Source: an uncultured Acidobacteriota bacterium (lineage in GTDB: Bacteria; Acidobacteriota; Blastocatellia; RBC074). From it: a stretch of DNA of 49,136 nt. Position numbers and translations under genes: made by a program. Of this stretch, positions 46 to 26,135 are shown in pieces; position 1 is the first letter of the stretch, and every line of letters begins with the position of its first letter. The stretch lies in NCBI GenBank assembly GCA_903828635.1, contig CAIKMY010000390.1, forward strand, positions 1-49,136, given 5' to 3'. Under the pieces are notes generated by a model. The model did no database searches, was not told the origin of the DNA, and saw only the letters and a program-made list of their open reading frames with translations.

Positions 46-73
46 TTGACAGCGCTTTCGAGCGCGTGATAAT
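46..73 (+). promoter_or_regulatory. candidate sigma70-type promoter (TTGACA-N16-GATAAT) upstream of the S2P protease gene
   Basis: TTGACA at 46-51 and GATAAT at 68-73, about 35 nt upstream of the preferred start at 110. Sequence match only. Confidence 0.3.
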
Positions 74-109
74 GTAAATTTCTTTGCCTGAAGAATGGAG
101 GTGATTGTA

Positions 110-766
110 ATGGACGGTCTGAATCTCGGGTCGATTCTGATCTGGTTTGTGGTTTTTCTGTTGTCGCTGACCGTACACGAATGTGCGCATGCCTGGGCTG
201 CCGAGAGATCAGGCGATCCGACAGGGCGTTATCTTGGCCGGGTGACGCTCAACCCGATAGCACATATTGACCTCTTTGGGACGATCATCTTTCCACTGAT
301 TGCCATCACCACCTCGGTGGGAGCCTGGATGTTCGGATGGGCGAAGCCGGTTCCATTCAACCCTGGTAATCTTCGTAATCGTCGTCGCGGTGAGATTGTG
401 ATTGCCCTTGCCGGTCCGATGAGCAATGTCCTCCTTGTCATGATCTTTGTTTTCATCTACAAAGTCGCCTTCCAGACATCGCTCATACCGCAGAGCCTGC
501 TGGGTGAGTATTTCCAGCCACTGACCGAGTTTCTGGAGATTGGGATTTCGCTCAACATCATCCTTGCCGTTTTTAATATGATTCCGATACCTCCGCTTGA
601 CGGGCATCACGTGCTGCGCAACCTCCTGCCGGACAGCCTTGCCGAACTCTACGTGCAGATACCTGGCTGGGCCGGCTTCGTCCTGCTTATCGTGATGGTT
701 CAATTAGGGCTGACCAGAATGCTGACCATGCCGGTATTTAATGTCGTCAGTTGGATTCTGGAATAG
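110..766 (+). CDS. site-2 protease family (peptidase M50) membrane metalloprotease
   Basis: ORF track 95..766. HExxH (HECAH) plus the downstream NMIPIPPLDG motif, and several hydrophobic helices. The ATG at 110 is preceded by GGAGG (97-101), so it is preferred over 95. Confidence 0.85.
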   Translation: MDGLNLGSILIWFVVFLLSLTVHECAHAWAAERSGDPTGRYLGRVTLNPIAHIDLFGTIIFPLIAITTSVGAWMFGWAKPVPFNPGNLRNRRRGEIVIALAGPMSNVLLVMIFVFIYKVAFQTSLIPQSLLGEYFQPLTEFLEIGISLNIILAVFNMIPIPPLDGHHVLRNLLPDSLAELYVQIPGWAGFVLLIVMVQLGLTRMLTMPVFNVVSWILE

Positions 767-813
767 CCTCACGATAGTTCGGGGGAGAGTCTTTATCTTT
801 AATCTCGACAAAT

Positions 814-1800
<987 letters not shown>

Positions 1801-1836
1801 TCAGAGATCGTCGAGCAGAGCATCAGGTAACAATAA

Positions 1837-2702
<866 letters not shown>

Positions 2703-8229: not shown

Positions 8230-8303
8230 GCTCCCGTAGCTCAGTCGGATAGAGCATCTGCCTTCTAAGCAGGGGGTCGCAAGTTCGAGTCTTGCCGGGA
8301 GTA
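8230..8303 (+). tRNA. tRNA-Arg (anticodon TCT)
   Basis: Cloverleaf folded by hand: acceptor gctcccg/cgggagt (G1:U72), D arm gctc-agtcggata-gagc, anticodon arm tctgc-cTTCTaa-gcagg, variable gggtc, T arm gcaag-ttcgagt-cttgc, discriminator a. No encoded CCA. Confidence 0.9.
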
Positions 8304-9466: not shown

Positions 9467-9585
9467 CACGTTCGAGTCGCTTTCCGCCGGGACACGCAGT
9501 AGTTGCCACAGGGGCCTGCCGGGAGTGCCATCATCCGACTTTCTTTGATCTGATAAGAAAATTTCAGAGATGTTTGTTAAAGCCA

Positions 9586-9614
9586 TTGCAATTGCTGCGG
9601 GAATGGTGCATATT
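9586..9614 (+). promoter_or_regulatory. candidate promoter TTGCAA-N17-CATATT giving a ~260-nt leader for the RRM protein gene
   Basis: Hexamers at 9586-9591 and 9609-9614. The leader contains an 8-bp hairpin gcgcatca-acgg-tgatgcgc at 9636-9655. Confidence 0.25.
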
Positions 9615-9627
9615 CTGTTTTGTCTAT

Positions 9628-9661
<34 letters not shown>

Positions 9662-9872
9662 CTGTTGGGTTCCCCGGTAAGTTATCCGGAGATGTCATCA
9701 GGGTTGCGAGGTCGTTTTCAGATGGTTCGAGAGCAGGTTGGTCATAAACTCTGAAGCTGCTCGATGAGAGCTATCGAACAAGTGCCTTCAATGCGACCGT
9801 TCACTGAGGCCATTAGGTTTTCGAAGCTTCTTTCAACCTCCTGAGGGAGGGGAAGGTCTAAAGGTCTATCTG

Positions 9873-10238
9873 ATGTCAATGAAACTCTATGTTGGTAATT
9901 TGTCGTTTAAGACGACGGGAGAGCATCTCGAGGATCTCTTCAGCCAGGTTGGCCAGGTGGAGTCGGCGACGGTGGTCACCGATCGTGACACTGGTCGTTC
10001 GCGCGGATTTGGTTTCGTCGAGATGGCGAGCAGCGAGGAAGGGAACGCGGCGATCGCCAAGTTCAACGGCGCTGAGGTTGCAGGCCGCAACCTGACGGTC
10101 AACGAGGCCCGGCCGCGTGAGGATCGTGGCGGCGGCGGCGGTGGATTCGGCGGCGGCGGTGGCGGTCGTCGTTGCGGCGGCGGCGGCGGCGGTGGACGTG
10201 GCGGCGGTTATGGCGGCGGTCGTTCGTCGCGTTACTGA
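9873..10238 (+). CDS. RRM-type RNA-binding protein with Gly/Arg-rich tail
   Basis: RNP2 LYVGNL and RNP1 RGFGFVEM. The C-terminal [15 protein letters not shown]...RGGGYGGGR is encoded by (GGC)n-like DNA at about 10126-10220. Confidence 0.9.
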
Positions 10239-10252
10239 TCGGTAAGTTCAAA

Positions 10253-10288
10253 GGCCCCGGGCATCGATCAAATGTCCGGGGCCTTTTG
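10253..10288 (+). terminator. rho-independent terminator after the RRM gene
   Basis: ggccccgg (10253-10260) pairs with ccggggcc (10276-10283), followed by tttt (10284-10287). Confidence 0.7.
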
Positions 10289-21251: not shown

Positions 21252-21321
21252 TATCTGAAGACACATTAGCATTCTTATGAGAACAGAGTGTAAGAGAGAG
21301 AAACCCGACTTTCAACCCTGT
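21252..21321 (+). repeat. dispersed repeat family R1, copy A (second copy at 45853..45921)
   Basis: The core cttatgagaacagagtg-aagagagaaacccga-ttt-aac-ctgt is shared by the two loci in the same orientation. About 85 percent identity by hand alignment over ~47 nt, with weaker similarity extending ~22 nt to the left. Confidence 0.85.
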
Positions 21322-21449: not shown

Positions 21450-21558
21450 ATGCCCCAACGGGGCATTGCATACCAGCCCGGGGTGAAACTCCGGGCAGAA
21501 GTGGCGCACAATTCAGGCGTTCTGAAGGAACGCCGCGTAACGGATCAAGTTTGAGACC
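21450..21558 (+). repeat. dispersed hairpin-rich repeat family R2, copy A (other copies at 43897..44005 and 44027..44062)
   Basis: Three consecutive hairpins: atgcccc-aac-ggggcat (21450-21466), gcccgg-N9-ccgggc (21476-21496), and ggcgttc-tgaag-gaacgcc (21517-21535). The 36-mer 21501-21536 recurs in reverse complement at 44027-44062 with one mismatch. Confidence 0.85.
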
Positions 21559-21816
21559 GGCGAGAGGTCAGCCCAAGGTCGAAAGGAGAACCGGAATAAT
21601 CAATTAGGAAATGGTTAACATATGAGTGTGATTAGCCGATTTTGATGTATATTGACAAACTGGCAATGTCGGAGTTTTGCCAACTCCGGTCTGCCGCAAC
21701 CCGACCTCGACCATACCCTCTGCCCCTCGAGCCAATCGACCAAGGGTCTGGTCAGGTATCAATAAGAAATATCGACGATGGTGATCAGAGTCTCACATTA
21801 ATACTGAGGAACCGTA

Positions 21817-24800
21817 ATGAGCACGGTATTCATCTCGTACAGTCAGAAGGACAAGAAGGTCGCCGCGAAGGTCAGGGCGACCCTTGAAGCAAATGGTATC
21901 AGTGTGACGATTGATTCTGAGTCAATGGCCGCCGGAGGCAACATCCGCGAGTTCATCGACCGGGCGGTTCGTGACACTCAGGTGACGCTCTCGATTGTCT
22001 CAAAGAACAGCCTCTCCTCTGACTGGGTGGCACTGGAGACAATGGAGTCTTTTGGGGCTGAGAAGTTTGTGAAAGGGAAAAGGTTCATCGCCTGTTATAT
22101 CGACAGGGAGGTTTTCAAGGATACATTTCTGGGAAATACGGTTAATAGTATTCAAATACAGATCAATGCGCTGAACCAGGAGATTTCAAAGCTCGGAGAG
22201 TTGGTCGATCCTGTTCCTCTTCAAACTAAAAAGAGCCGTAAAATCAAGCTGAGGGACAATCTTCCTCATATACTTGATCGACTGAATAATGACCTGACAC
22301 TTGACATCCGTAAAGCTGCATACGAGACCAGCATGCAGCGGATCATCAAAGAGATCAAAGACCTGCCAGATCCTATCCAACCCGGAGGCGGATTTTCATC
22401 TCCGATGGACAGGTTTGCCGAGGCATTCGCTAAAAAGATCAAAACCGACAAGCGCCAGCTTGATGAACGATTTGTCCAACTGACCCTGATGCTGGATCGC
22501 GGAGACGAAGCGACCGAAAAGTGGGAGCGCAAATCGCTGCAAAAACTGGATGACCTGCTCAAGATCAATCAGGATGAGTATCCGGTGATGGTGATCCTTG
22601 GAGCACCCGGGTCAGGTAAATCGACTCTGCTGCGGCGACTTGAGGTTGACTACCATCGGGACCAGACCAGTGCGGGTGATCTGGGGATTTCATTCTTCGC
22701 ACCTCTCAACAGGTATCGCCCATTTTCACGTGACAAACAGCCCGTTTCACCGCAGCAATTTCTTGAATCGATCTGGAACGAGTCTTACCAGAAGACCGGG
22801 TTGTCATTGGAAGACTGTCTGAAAAAGGGAAAGGTTCTGTTGCTGCTCGATGCCATCAATGAACTTCCGCACGGCAGCAAAGAGGAGTATCAGGAGCTGT
22901 TGGATTACTGGCGAGAATTTGCGATCGCACAGATGAAACTGGAGAATCGGGTGATCTTCAGTTGCCGCAGTCTCGATTACAGTCAATCGCTCAGCCGGCC
23001 TGATCTGCGTGTGCCCAATGTCGAGCTTCAACCATTGACGAAAGAAAAGATTGCCGAATTCCTGCAGGCCTATCTGTCTGAAGGTCACGATGAAGTGTTT
23101 GAGTCAATGGAACAGAATAAGACTCTGGATTTTTACAACAATCCCTTCTTTCTGAGTCTGCTTTGCCAACAGATTGGTACCAGTAAGGAGGTTCCAAAGG
23201 GCAGGGCGTCACTCTTTACCGGCTTCGTTCGGAATACTTTGAGAAGGGAGATGCACACTGCACTCTTCACCTCAGAAGAGTTCCTCTCTGAGTTTGATCA
23301 GGAAAAACTGACCCTGAATAAATGGGCAAATCCATTTCAGCTACCCGACGATGGTCCGCTCCCTGACAAACTGAGCCACCTTGCATACGAGATGCAGCAG
23401 AGCGGGAAGCGAAGAGAGAACAAACAGGTCTGTATCGATGTGAAGAAGGCGGTCGAGCTGGTTGGTGCGGGTAAAACCGGAAACGGCATTATCAAGGGTG
23501 GGCTGGCGATCAGCGTCCTTGATAAAGATGTGGGAAGAGGAGAGGTGACCTACTATCACCAGCTACTGCAGGAGTACTTTGCAGGACGCCGGCTGGCCAC
23601 TGATCCCAAGCCGGAGCTGGTAAGCGTGGAGTGGAGAGCCAGCGATGTTCGCCCGAGCCTTGAGGAGACGATCGCCGGACTGGCCAACGGAGATCCGCTG
23701 CCACCACCGGGGCAGACCGGATGGGAAGAGACTACGCTCGCCGCGCTGCCAATGTCGGATGATCCGGAAGGCTACGTCACGAGGCTGATCGAGTACAACC
23801 TGCCACTGGCCGCAAGATGTGCCATTTCGCCAGAGGTCAGGATCTCAGACAAGACAAAGAACCTGATCCGCGAGAAGCTGGTGAACCGGACTCAGGATAT
23901 GACGGCCGATCTGCGGGCGAGGATCACCGCTGGTGAGGCACTCGGGTTGATTGGAGATCCGCGGTTTAAGCCATATCCCAGTGACAAACCTGTGTGTCTG
24001 CTGCCGCTGATGGCCGATATACCAGCGGGGGTCTATCCGATCGGTGATGACCAGAGTGGTTATGCTGCTGAAAGACCAGCGCACAAGGTTCAATTGCCAG
24101 CTTACCAGATCGGAGTCTACCCGGTAACCAATGCCGAGTATGCCCGGTTCATCGAGGCCGGTGGGTATGAGGATGAGAGATGGTGGGATACTGTTGCGGC
24201 ACGACGCTGGCTGCGCGAGGGAGGAGCGGAGGATCAGAAACAAGCCTTTCGCGATCAACGTCGAAGATGGCAGAACGACTGGACTGATGATGAGATCAGG
24301 GCGCTGGTCAGCCAGAAGCGAGCCACGGAGGAACAGGTGGAGTATTATCTCTGGAGAAGAAATTCATCGGATGAAGAGTTTGAAAGACAAATTGACGAGT
24401 GGTTTCCTGCAGGAAATTTTGACCGGACACCGAGATATTGGGAGGACGCCAGCTACAACAGCCCGGGGCAGCCAGTCGTGGGAGTGAGCTGGTACGAGGC
24501 ACGAGCCTACTGCAAGTGGATCAGCCACGTAACGGGTGTGGAATACCGGTTGCCGACTGAGGTGGAGTATGAGGCTGCTGCCAGCGGCTTGGAAGGCAGA
24601 GAGTATGCCTATGGCAATGAATTCGATTCGAGCAGGTGTAATACCTTCGAGAGCCATATCCGCCGACCAACTCCGGTTGGCATATTTGACAACCGGACGC
24701 CGGAGGGAGCATACGACCTGACGGGAAATGTCTGGACGTGGACCTCGACAATCTATGATCAGAAGAGTTATGCCTATCCATACCGCGCAGATGATGGAAG

Positions 24801-25020
24801 GGAAATGGTGGAGACGACAGTGGGAAGCGAAGAAGGGAGCGGTGGTGAAAAACGTGCATTGGCCGCGAACCGTGTCTTCCGCGGCGGCAGCTGGCACCGC
24901 CACGCCGTCTACTGCCGCTCGGCTTACCGCAACTGGACCGCGCCGGGCGGCCGCGACGACCGCCTCGGCTTCCGCCTTTCGAGGACTTTACCGTTGGCCC
25001 TCTTTACCCTTGGGACATGA
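21817..25020 (+). CDS. TIR domain / NACHT-like STAND P-loop NTPase / FGE-sulfatase (SUMF1-type) domain protein; candidate NLR-like defence protein
   Basis: GAGGA SD at 21806-21810. TIR: MSTVFISYSQKD...SSDWVALE (Glu74 at 22036-22038). Walker A GAPGSGKST (Lys268 at 22618-22620), Walker B LLLLDAINE (Asp345 at 22849-22851), then VIFSCRS. C-terminal FGE-type motifs RPAHKVQLPAYQIGVYPVTNAEYARF, VVGVSWYEARAYCKW, YRLPTEVEYEAAA, FRGGSW and LGFRLSR. Confidence 0.9.
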   Translation: MSTVFISYSQKDKKVAAKVRATLEANGISVTIDSESMAAGGNIREFIDRAVRDTQVTLSIVSKNSLSSDWVALETMESFGAEKFVKGKRFIACYIDREVFKDTFLGNTVNSIQIQINALNQEISKLGELVDPVPLQTKKSRKIKLRDNLPHILDRLNNDLTLDIRKAAYETSMQRIIKEIKDLPDPIQPGGGFSSPMDRFAEAFAKKIKTDKRQLDERFVQLTLMLDRGDEATEKWERKSLQKLDDLLKINQDEYPVMVILGAPGSGKSTLLRRLEVDYHRDQTSAGDLGISFFAPLNRYRPFSRDKQPVSPQQFLESIWNESYQKTGLSLEDCLKKGKVLLLLDAINELPHGSKEEYQELLDYWREFAIAQMKLENRVIFSCRSLDYSQSLSRPDLRVPNVELQPLTKEKIAEFLQAYLSEGHDEVFESMEQNKTLDFYNNPFFLSLLCQQIGTSKEVPKGRASLFTGFVRNTLRREMHTALFTSEEFLSEFDQEKLTLNKWANPFQLPDDGPLPDKLSHLAYEMQQSGKRRENKQVCIDVKKAVELVGAGKTGNGIIKGGLAISVLDKDVGRGEVTYYHQLLQEYFAGRRLATDPKPELVSVEWRASDVRPSLEETIAGLANGDPLPPPGQTGWEETTLAALPMSDDPEGYVTRLIEYNLPLAARCAISPEVRISDKTKNLIREKLVNRTQDMTADLRARITAGEALGLIGDPRFKPYPSDKPVCLLPLMADIPAGVYPIGDDQSGYAAERPAHKVQLPAYQIGVYPVTNAEYARFIEAGGYEDERWWDTVAARRWLREGGAEDQKQAFRDQRRRWQNDWTDDEIRALVSQKRATEEQVEYYLWRRNSSDEEFERQIDEWFPAGNFDRTPRYWEDASYNSPGQPVVGVSWYEARAYCKWISHVTGVEYRLPTEVEYEAAASGLEGREYAYGNEFDSSRCNTFESHIRRPTPVGIFDNRTPEGAYDLTGNVWTWTSTIYDQKSYAYPYRADDGREMVETTVGSEEGSGGEKRALAANRVFRGGSWHRHAVYCRSAYRNWTAPGGRDDRLGFRLSRTLPLALFTLGT

Positions 25021-25301
25021 AACAAAGGCCGATAGCGGGGAGCAAGAGGCCGCGCCGGGGTGGGAAGCGGGCGAGGCGAGAGCCGACCGCCCCACCACGG
25101 CTCGGCCGGAGAGACGTCCTGCATGATCACCCCGAAGAAGGACCGTCGGGAAAAGAAGCAAAAGAAGGTGGATAAAAAAGGGACAGAGAAACAAAGGCCC
25201 GCAAAATGGAGCGAAGCGGAGCGGAGCGGGAAAAATTTAGTTTCCAGGTCAACGACAGTGCCTGCCCGGGATCTCGCGTCTTCAGACGAGGACCCGGAGC
25301 G

Positions 25302-26135
25302 TTAGTCTCTGTTGTCAGGTCCTCTCTCTTCCCGCAACACCTGATGAATAGTCCTGATCAGTCGTTCGTGAATCGGACCGTTGCTGGCGAGGACACCGTG
25401 CCGATTGCGGACCCCCTCGGCACCATACTGAAGAGGATCTCCGTTGATGTCGGTGACGAGGCCACCAGCAGCACACAGGATCGCTTCGGGGCCACAGGTA
25501 TCCCAGACATTGGTCTTCTGTCCGGGATGAAGGTAAATATGAGCCAGACCCTCGGCAAGCATCCCCATCTTCAGCCCGACGCTGCCGGAAGAGACGCGGC
25601 TGCCAACCCCGAGTCGATCGAGAATGTCATCGACGATCGGGCTCTTGTGAGAGCGGCTCATTGCCACCGTCATCGCGTTCGGCTGTTGCTCGGTGGAGAC
25701 ACGCAGCCGACGGGTCGACCAGTTCTCCTCGACAAAGGCTCCCAGTCCCGATGCCGCATAAAAGATCCGTTTTCGAGGGGCGTGACAGACGACCCCGAGG
25801 GATGGTACTCCGCCAATCGTCAGGCCAATCTGGATGGCAAACTCGCCAATCCCCTCGATGAACTGTTTGGTTCCATCGATCGGGTCGATCATCCAGACGC
25901 GTTCGTGGCGTAAACGTGAGCCATCGTCCGCCTCCTCCTCCGAGAGGACGGCGTCACCGGGAAAGGCCTGAGACAGTCGATCTACCAGCAACCTGCTGGC
26001 TGCGTGATCGGCCACGGTCACCGGATCGTCGATATCCTTCCATTTGACCTCAGCGCCGGTGTGATAGTAGCGCATCACAATCTCGCTCGCTTCACGGGCA
26101 AGGCCAAGAGCTGTTTCAAGTTCGTGTTCAAGCAT
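25302..26135 (-). CDS. inositol monophosphatase family protein (IMPase/CysQ-like)
   Basis: WMIDPIDGTKQF and VWDTCGPEAILCAAGG signature motifs. The ORF extends to 26231, but the internal Met (MLEHELETAL...) gives a normal-length protein and avoids overlapping the divergent neighbour. Confidence 0.85.
   Translation of the reverse strand: MLEHELETALGLAREASEIVMRYYHTGAEVKWKDIDDPVTVADHAASRLLVDRLSQAFPGDAVLSEEEADDGSRLRHERVWMIDPIDGTKQFIEGIGEFAIQIGLTIGGVPSLGVVCHAPRKRIFYAASGLGAFVEENWSTRRLRVSTEQQPNAMTVAMSRSHKSPIVDDILDRLGVGSRVSSGSVGLKMGMLAEGLAHIYLHPGQKTNVWDTCGPEAILCAAGGLVTDINGDPLQYGAEGVRNRHGVLASNGPIHERLIRTIHQVLREERGPDNRD

Follow-up and report, generated by a model that had tools for sequence, protein, structure and literature searches.

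The stretch of DNA considered here, 49,136 nucleotides (nt) of contig CAIKMY010000390.1 from an uncultured Acidobacteriota bacterium of the Blastocatellia and hereafter called the window, carries at 21817-25020 on the forward strand a single gene whose product joins a TIR domain, a NACHT NTPase and a C-terminal domain of the formylglycine-generating enzyme (FGE) or C-type lectin (CLec) fold. We read this protein as a cytoplasmic NLR-like conflict sensor in which the FGE-fold domain would serve as a non-enzymatic sensor and would end in a variable region (VR) written by a diversity-generating retroelement (DGR), the gene being a remote target of a DGR that either acts in trans or has been lost. 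We give this reading a probability of roughly 0.65. The evidence that carries it lies at the 3' end of the gene and in the DGR cassettes of its relatives, and we present these before turning to the domains of the protein.

The variable region and the family it belongs to

The VR covers amino acids (aa) 1021-1053 (nt 24877-24975, + strand) and spans approximately the last 35 codons of the FGE domain, which ends at aa 1054; its hypervariable core lies at aa 1027-1050 (nt 24895-24966, + strand). The region is recognizable from its NNC codons, from the codon positions at which it diverges and from the conservation of its third positions. Within the core, 19 of the 24 codons have the form NNC, compared to 26% of the codons in the remaining gene (binomial P=7e-8), and when the gene is read in windows of 24 codons, all of those richest in NNC begin between aa 1016 and 1031, within or just before the VR. 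The GC content of the VR segment is 77%, versus 53.5% for the gene. Moreover, the NNC codons of the window gene fall where the template at a related locus, L001, has AAC.

Comparison of the window gene to its relatives shows the same region to be unusual in a second way. When aligned to the 85%-identical gene of locus L080, codon positions 1, 2 and 3 differ at 37.5, 37.5 and 8% of sites in the VR and at 9, 7 and 25% elsewhere, and no other 24-aa stretch of the alignment diverges as much as the VR. Relative to the more diverged genes of loci L082, L083, L085 and L087, third positions differ by only 8-12% in the VR core, whereas upstream they differ by 62-71% and are saturated (Fisher P=2e-6 to 1e-9). 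Among nine VRs built on the window's scaffold, 0 of the 28 invariant core columns is an A, and the template inferred from them is AAC-rich. Near-identical synonymous sites in strongly diverged genes require a copying process at the level of DNA, and their identity here points to templating from a shared template repeat (TR); repeated overwriting from a conserved template would explain both the identical third positions and the hypervariable first and second positions. The VR of the window gene is thus, going by its DGR signature, predicted to have been written by a DGR. A sequence-only reading of this locus made previously had overlooked the VR, which we regard as the central feature of the gene.

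Relatives of the gene were sought by scanning one genome per species, which yielded at least 395 relatives, and 78 loci were kept. These come mostly from Blastocatellia, Anaerolineae and other Chloroflexota, Competibacteraceae and Accumulibacter, and several paralogues per genome are common. The 64%-identical homologue P0007 stands in tandem with a TIR-NACHT-FGE paralogue, directly followed by RVT_1 and bAvd genes. At L001, an adenine-tolerant scan found a TR at 14939-15050 (minus strand), to which the 3' ends of both these genes show 10 and 17 mismatches at template adenines and 0 and 1 elsewhere; mismatch confined to adenines in this way is the defining signature of a DGR. Across the survey, about 28 of the 78 loci have a DGR-type reverse transcriptase (RT) just downstream, several of them with Avd and some with RT matches that are fragmentary, and the 18 VRs with a clear TR differ from it at 10-22 adenine sites and at 0-1 others. 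When the count is restricted to the 50 VRs followed by 2.5 kb or more of DNA, nine have a TR, two a weaker TR, ten a full RT, seven an RT fragment and 32 nothing, so linkage in cis is common without being the rule. We take the family, from these sequence comparisons, to be a DGR target family. The unit found in many relatives consists of one or two target genes, Avd, a TR and an RT. As such, the description of the window gene as a single-gene defence cassette in the sequence-only reading is apt insofar as the gene stands alone, but it is incomplete because the family is one of DGR targets.

Within this family, the window gene ends in 'GFRLSRTLPLALFTLGT', unlike the common 'RPPS' type, from which its VR scaffold, its 'GFRLSRTLP' junction and a hairpin downstream of the gene are all distinct. 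The SRTLP-type tail and VR scaffold are common to the window gene, its closest homologues P0002 and P0003, P0005/L080, P0006/L081b, P0012/L088 and P0016/L089. The conserved 3' junction, TTCCGCCTTTCGAGGACTTTACC (24970-24992, + strand), encodes FRLSRTLP and is a candidate VR boundary resembling an initiation of mutagenic homology (IMH) site. Its pattern was matched in the window, L080, L081, L088, L089 and six metagenome contigs, and the junction is kept in L080, L084, L085 and L087, where the stop codon comes straight after it. A metagenome search with the DNA junction TTCCGCCTNTCNAGGACTTTACC retrieved six more VRs, all six matches being VRs and none a TR.

Starting 27 nt past the stop codon of the window gene is a conserved, GC-rich extended hairpin of 60 nt (25048-25107, + strand), which is kept in six SRTLP-type loci. 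Of its 18 predicted pairs, three show compensatory double changes, and its DNA fold of -27.4 kcal/mol (z=-5.15) was equalled in stability by 0 of 200 shuffled sequences. We consider it a candidate DGR target-recognition structure or, alternatively, a terminator. In the loci that do bear a TR, the homology between TR and VR stops at the conserved junction (VR 'CGTCCCCC', TR 'CGTCCCAC'), and a different conserved, branched GC hairpin lies 30-40 nt past the junction, in the same relative place as the hairpin of the window.

The scaffold is found beyond TIR-NACHT-FGE proteins. Locus L087 encodes at 62-1882 (- strand) a caspase (Peptidase_C14)-FGE protein with the VR scaffold, the junction motif and the start of the hairpin seen in the window, and the product of L085 53-1537 (- strand) has a Pfam match to FGE and, by eye, a caspase-like DACFSGS motif. 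With a caspase-FGE protein of L087 on the same scaffold, one scaffold serves different effector architectures, and it appears that one template family does so as well.

Two side observations concern these loci. A 143-159-aa ORF (open reading frame) with no Pfam match lies directly 3' of several SRTLP-type NLR genes (L088 5688-6125; L081 13502-13933; L080 2561-3040; L086 324-797; L018 9291-9746) and is missing from the window; its product is possibly an accessory partner. The L088 contig (Ga0620594_0003899) holds five FGE-domain genes, three of them TIR-NACHT-FGE, and also a stand-alone TIR gene and one for HNH_4. In this array, VRs of the SRTLP type stand side by side with ones of the RPPS type, and the VR of one paralogue, NLR3 (9514-12600), is decayed.

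Proposed effector, switch and sensor domains

Profile searches for all three modules of the protein gave significant matches above the curated Pfam cut-offs, in keeping with the effector-NTPase-sensor order that had been read from the sequence alone. The TIR domain (aa 4-115, 21826-22161, + strand) matches TIR_2 (PF13676; E=4.9e-19, 69.4 bits, cut-off 28) and has PDB sequence matches to Cat1 and AbTIR. Glu74, in an SDWVALE motif, lines up with the W-x-x-x-E glutamate of AbTIR and Cat1, as its earlier assignment to the catalytic position had implied, and is kept in 11 of 11 members of the window's own subclade. We take the Glu of this motif in AbTIR to be its catalytic residue, and E74 is a candidate catalytic Glu of a NAD+-cleaving TIR. 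A divergent TIR variant ('…RKEVHREWFYFDQ') was seen in most of the more distant TIR-NACHT-FGE relatives (~45% identity), with Asp at the E74 column and a Glu before the Trp.

The NACHT NTPase (aa 257-422, 22585-23082, + strand) matches Pfam NACHT (PF05729; E=6.2e-12, 46.1 bits, cut-off 26.7) and is also supported by Foldseek. Its Walker A motif GAPGSGKST (aa 262-270, with K268; nt 22600-22626, + strand), its Walker B motif LLLLDAINE (aa 341-349, with D345; nt 22837-22863, + strand) and FSCRS (aa 381-385, + strand) are the three NACHT-type motifs that had been picked out beforehand, and K268, D345, E349, C383 and R384 are unchanged in all 67 aligned family members. A helical region (23083-24006, + strand) that is winged-helix and HEAT-like in the secondary structure of the model joins the NACHT to the sensor. 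It closes with a HEAT-type 'AGEALGLIGDPRF' repeat, which aligns with the N-terminal segment of ToxD, and the region has no PDB sequence match. In homologues, the TIR domain is replaced by EAD-type domains (PF19961/PF19956), a trypsin-like domain or a DUF559 nuclease. Such swapping of N-terminal effectors is typical of NLR-type conflict proteins; the resemblance to them holds, and we class the window protein, as judged from its domains and motifs, as an NLR-like STAND protein of the NACHT clade.

The C-terminal domain (aa 731-1054, 24007-24978, + strand) matches Pfam FGE-sulfatase with E=2.1e-46 and 159.1 bits (cut-off 23.3), and its PDB matches are ToxD, EgtB, OvsA, FGE, PvdO and the DGR protein TvpA (2y3c). 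An AlphaFold2 model of the whole protein, generated from the 67-sequence family alignment, is confident (mean pLDDT 86.1, pTM 0.76), and a Foldseek search with it retrieved FGE-fold proteins (ToxD, EgtB, OvsA, FGE), the NACHT domains of NLRP3 and NOD2 and the plant TIR-NLR RPP1, with TM-scores of 0.69 for ToxD and ~0.65 for human FGE. A family-specific insert of ~70 aa (aa ~793-862, 24193-24402, + strand) is a gap in every PDB alignment and forms five helices in the model. This five-helix insert is kept across the NLR family and is absent from ToxD, FGE and EgtB and apparently also from the caspase-FGE proteins.

The sensor had been described as an uncharacterised type. While the FGE-type domain is real, FGE or 'FGS' sensors on NACHT proteins already form a named class. 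Kaur et al. (eLife 2020, PMC7159879, and 2021) described 'FGS' as a module of NTPase conflict systems that sits at the C-terminus and is often diversified by DGRs. Kibby et al. (bioRxiv 2022, 10.1101/2022.07.19.500537; Cell 2023) recognise two C-termini of bacterial NACHT proteins as 'antigen receptor-type', 'FGS' being one of them, and consider DGR diversification likely. The window protein has the effector-NACHT-FGS order of the latter proteins, whose FGS domains are predicted to bind a phage molecule or a guarded host molecule and, in several cases, to undergo DGR diversification; the bNACHTs assayed in that work apparently lie outside the FGS class. A 2026 survey of STAND proteins in Nature (PMC13581612, Fig. 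1c) places FGE-sulfatase sensors among defence STANDs, in passages that are purely descriptive, and DGRs appear nowhere in its text.

The closest counterparts are the targets of DGRs described by Dore et al. 2024 (PMC10907252), who reported a DGR clade that commonly diversifies paired NACHT/nSTAND1-CLec targets, some with TIR and some remote, and who regard CLec domains on STAND proteins as experimentally uncharacterised. Like the targets of their 'clade 5D', which are putative antigen sensors of aggregate-forming bacteria such as Thiohalocapsa PB-PSB1, the window protein has a central STAND NTPase and a VR-bearing C-terminal CLec domain of the FGE type; some clade 5D targets likewise carry N-terminal TIR or peptidase effectors, and some are remote and diversified in trans (PMC10907252). 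Paired targets as in clade 5D are seen in L001, L081 and L088, and Accumulibacter and filamentous Chloroflexi are hosts common to clade 5D targets and to this family. In contrast, the window copy is solitary, has no DGR on its 49 kb and comes from Blastocatellia, a lineage unmentioned in PMC10907252.

Other known systems share parts of this arrangement. Avs and other antiviral STANDs (Gao et al. 2022; PMC13581612) have the same order of effector, switch and C-terminal sensor, and their sensors bind phage proteins and so trigger a lethal effector (PMC13581612). The Avs sensors, however, are germline-encoded TPR-like repeats for conserved folds, whereas in the window protein one globular domain of the lectin fold, bearing a hypermutable patch, takes their place. 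The plant TIR-NLRs RPP1 and ROQ1 also combine a TIR domain, a STAND NTPase and a sensor, and Foldseek aligns the model with RPP1; their activation of TIR NADase activity by induced proximity offers a working model, although they have NB-ARC NTPases with leucine-rich repeat and C-JID sensors, unlike the window protein, and identity to RPP1 is ~13%. Mtd of Bordetella phage BPP-1 and TvpA of Treponema denticola have the CLec/FGE-type fold and a C-terminal VR of NNC codons templated by an AAC-rich TR, and TvpA (2y3c) is a detectable sequence relative of the window protein. Those two are surface or receptor-binding proteins without NTPase or effector domains, whereas here the fold would be the sensor arm of an intracellular signalling protein. 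Finally, FGE, EgtB, OvsA and ToxD have the same fold (TM 0.63-0.69, normalised to the target), but their catalytic residues are not conserved in the window protein, which also differs from them in its ~70-aa helical insert and its fusion to TIR and NACHT.

From these comparisons, we assign the gene to a class that is known from computational work and is experimentally untested in the literature searched. The sequence-only reading knew of no experimental work on an FGE-type fold in the sensor position, which is consistent with that literature (Dore et al., PMC10907252). What this locus adds, modestly, is the SRTLP-type VR scaffold that it has in common with caspase-FGE proteins, the conserved junction and hairpin of that scaffold, and the solitary position of the copy; it leaves the field's picture unchanged.

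Proposed mechanism and rival explanations

In the mechanism that we propose, an error-prone RT would copy a conserved TR, randomising its adenines such that AAC codons become NNC, and the cDNA would replace the 3' end of the gene, with aa ~1027-1050 of the VR forming the binding surface. The signalling steps are patterned on characterised bNACHT and Avs proteins and on TIR NADases. A foreign ligand, most likely a phage protein, would bind the variable patch of the FGE sensor and release the NACHT switch, with nucleotide exchange or hydrolysis and oligomerisation; oligomerisation would gather the N-terminal TIR domains, which would consume NAD+ or make a signal; and the cell would arrest or die, limiting the spread of infection. 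The RT, Avd and template for the window gene would either be provided in trans by another part of the genome or have disappeared, in which case the specificity would be frozen.

Several observations speak against parts of this proposal. Searches of the 49-kb window using tblastn with L001- and L082-type proteins found no RT, Avd or HRDC, and a repeat search together with adenine-tolerant sliding and Kadane scans of both strands found the VR and no TR. An IUPAC pattern covering all possible TRs of this VR, with up to 3 mismatches allowed, matched the VR itself and nothing else in the window, and had 0 matches in the genome, metagenome and viral collections; since the VR itself was also unmatched there, the window's genome lying outside those collections, this last result tells us nothing either way. 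Viral contigs gave 0 matches both to the junction motif and to the AAC-rich TR pattern that had been inferred. No TR for the SRTLP-type scaffold was seen at any locus. At L082, HRDC, bAvd and the start of an RT lie directly downstream of an SRTLP-type target, which counts in favour of DGR linkage, but the RT ORF is cut off after ~96 aa, where it meets repeat elements, and the 2.7-kb contig is without a TR. The conservation of synonymous sites could in principle also reflect recombination or gene conversion of a 3' cassette rather than retrohoming. On the side of function, a defence-island setting was ruled out for this locus, the neighbours being housekeeping or metabolic genes; PADLOC yielded no system model that matched the whole protein, only partial matches, chiefly with generic TIR models; most of the more distant relatives have a divergent TIR in which the E74-aligned column is mostly Asp; and no experiments on any member of the FGE-sensor STAND class were found in the literature searched.

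With no RT, Avd or template in the window, the gene is either a remote target served in trans or the orphan of a lost DGR. We tentatively entertain as a possibility the active form of the first, i.e., that a DGR elsewhere in this Blastocatellia genome keeps rewriting the tip of a solitary TIR-NLR sensor. The lack of RT and Avd in cis is compatible with action in trans because remote targets are known for this DGR lineage (PMC10907252). If the receptor is trans-diversified, the shared VR scaffold, junction and hairpin would act as a portable 'address tag', and one template could service dispersed receptors with different killing modules (TIR-NACHT here, caspase in L087); this would amount to an anticipatory, protein-based form of immune repertoire in bacteria whose targeting signal is defined and acts in cis.

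The second possibility is that a DGR once wrote the VR and has since been lost, leaving a germline NLR-type sensor with one fixed specificity and the same signalling. It is favoured by the lack of any DGR part within 21.8 kb upstream or 24 kb downstream of the gene and by the family at large, in which the 32 of 50 VRs without a DGR trace and the 7 with RT fragments only indicate that decay and orphaning are common, as well as by the disrupted RT ORF of L082 and the decayed VR of NLR3 in L088. Nevertheless, the NNC pattern of the window is still very clean (19 of 24), the near-identity of its VR synonymous sites with distant genes speaks for recent templating, its downstream hairpin is intact, and trans-acting DGRs with remote targets are documented in this lineage (PMC10907252). 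We regard a receptor frozen in this manner as rather unlikely. The clean NNC pattern, the kept scaffold and the intact hairpin count in favour of recent templating and not of current activity. NNC excess alone cannot separate active from orphan targets, as the mean number of NNC codons is 14.6 of 24 in family members with a nearby DGR and 14.2 in those without one.

It is also conceivable that the protein has no role against phages and instead carries out self/non-self or developmental STAND signalling in an aggregate-forming bacterium, such as kin recognition or regulated cell death, its variable FGE domain binding a ligand that is cellular or conspecific. The family occurs chiefly in filamentous and floc- or biofilm-forming lineages (Anaerolineae, Blastocatellia, Competibacter, Accumulibacter), the gene lies amid housekeeping genes and outside any defence island, and Kaur et al. 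tie such systems to multicellularity. However, the exchange of TIR, caspase, trypsin and nuclease effectors on one chassis is a hallmark of conflict systems, phage protection is provided by related bNACHT and Avs proteins, and hypervariation suits an arms race better than a fixed cellular ligand. We find a role of this kind improbable.

The last rival, an enzyme fusion in which the C-terminal domain is a working FGE, EgtB or PvdO-type oxidase with a metabolic or protein-modification role, can draw on the strong Pfam FGE-sulfatase match, on partial NCBIfam matches to EgtB, SenA, OvoA and PvdO and on the annotation of relatives at source as 'SUMF1/EgtB/PvdO family nonheme iron enzyme', but we rejected it as highly implausible given that the NCBIfam enzyme equivalogs all score far under their cut-offs (EgtB 119.8 bits versus 360, the others lower) and that the catalytic loop is not conserved, and a fusion to TIR and NACHT together with DGR linkage would make no sense for a housekeeping enzyme. 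The loop in question follows GGSW (W1026-R1034) and is where, from the motif and not from a residue-level alignment with a true FGE, we presume the two copper-binding cysteines of FGE to be located; it is hypervariable in the family, and its only Cys, C1033, is Ala in 60 of 67 relatives. In addition, Pfam searches found no counterpart in the window protein of the N-terminal DinB-type iron-binding domain of EgtB. Because of the sub-cut-off scores, the missing DinB-type domain, the hypervariable loop and the relationship to the DGR variable protein TvpA, we consider the FGE-fold domain to be a predicted ligand-binding sensor and not an enzyme.

DGR-diversified NLR-like proteins are the closest proposed bacterial analogue of antibody-like anticipatory receptors, and the claims made for them rest on comparative genomics. 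The present locus is a clean Acidobacteriota example of a remote or orphan DGR target, and its conserved junction and hairpin may be the features that a DGR requires for locating a distant target. NNC excess combined with conserved synonymous sites in diverged genes also provides a signature by which DGR-written VRs could be recognized on contigs without a retroelement.

Gene neighbourhood and other features of the window

The ORF at 21817-25020 (+ strand) encodes 1067 aa from an ATG start and is preceded, at a distance of 6 nt, by a Shine-Dalgarno sequence GAGGA (21806-21810, + strand), read off the sequence. Its GC content of 53.5% compares to ~60% in its surroundings. Upstream, 640 bp of non-coding DNA separate it from the start of SelA at 21176, and downstream, 281 bp separate it from an inositol-monophosphatase-family gene at 25302. 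The ORF, its good ribosome-binding site and its solitary position between non-coding flanks amid housekeeping genes were all as the sequence-only reading had them. Besides SelA and the inositol-monophosphatase-family protein, the near neighbours encode a cyclase, DinB, an ATL-type protein, two YceI proteins and an aldehyde dehydrogenase; farther away are a TrpRS/TyrRS-class synthetase, ScpA/B, a DEAD-box helicase, a TonB-dependent receptor and RpoC, the sequence of which assigns the contig to Blastocatellia (Acidobacteriota). Every ORF of the window that matches Pfam is of a housekeeping type. The best non-TIR match of the protein in PADLOC was to PDC-S60 (E=5.7e-4), no PADLOC Avs model was matched, and an NCBIfam match to EruA was partial (49.9 bits versus a cut-off of 1000). 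Promoter and terminator scans gave sites no more numerous than in shuffled sequence, and Rfam searches of the window and of the upstream intergenic region returned only a tRNA (8230-8303) and a meaningless mir-320 match.

The 640-bp region upstream of the gene contains at 21451-21539 a repeat of ~90 nt made up of three consecutive hairpins (GCGCCCCAACGGGGCGC / CCCAGGGTGnAACCCTGGG / GGCGTTCTGAAGGAACGCC). Further copies lie at 44024-44066 of the window (opposite strand), at 387-641 of L082 and at 4130-4341 of L087. The copies show compensatory variation, have the look of repetitive extragenic palindromes (REP) or miniature inverted-repeat transposable elements (MITE) and lack an Rfam match; those in L082 sit precisely where the DGR RT ORF breaks off. 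The same upstream region holds one copy of a short direct repeat (21242-21293) with 77-80% identity to a second at 45843-45921, in a low-GC intergenic region.

Two minor features lie elsewhere in the window. A GGC-rich imperfect tandem repeat, glycine-rich if translated, is found at 10128-10224, just 5' of the DEAD-box helicase gene, and an ORF of 1013 aa at 15698-18739 (+ strand) encodes an unusual fusion of an APH-type phosphotransferase, Peptidase_M23 and a class-III aminotransferase.

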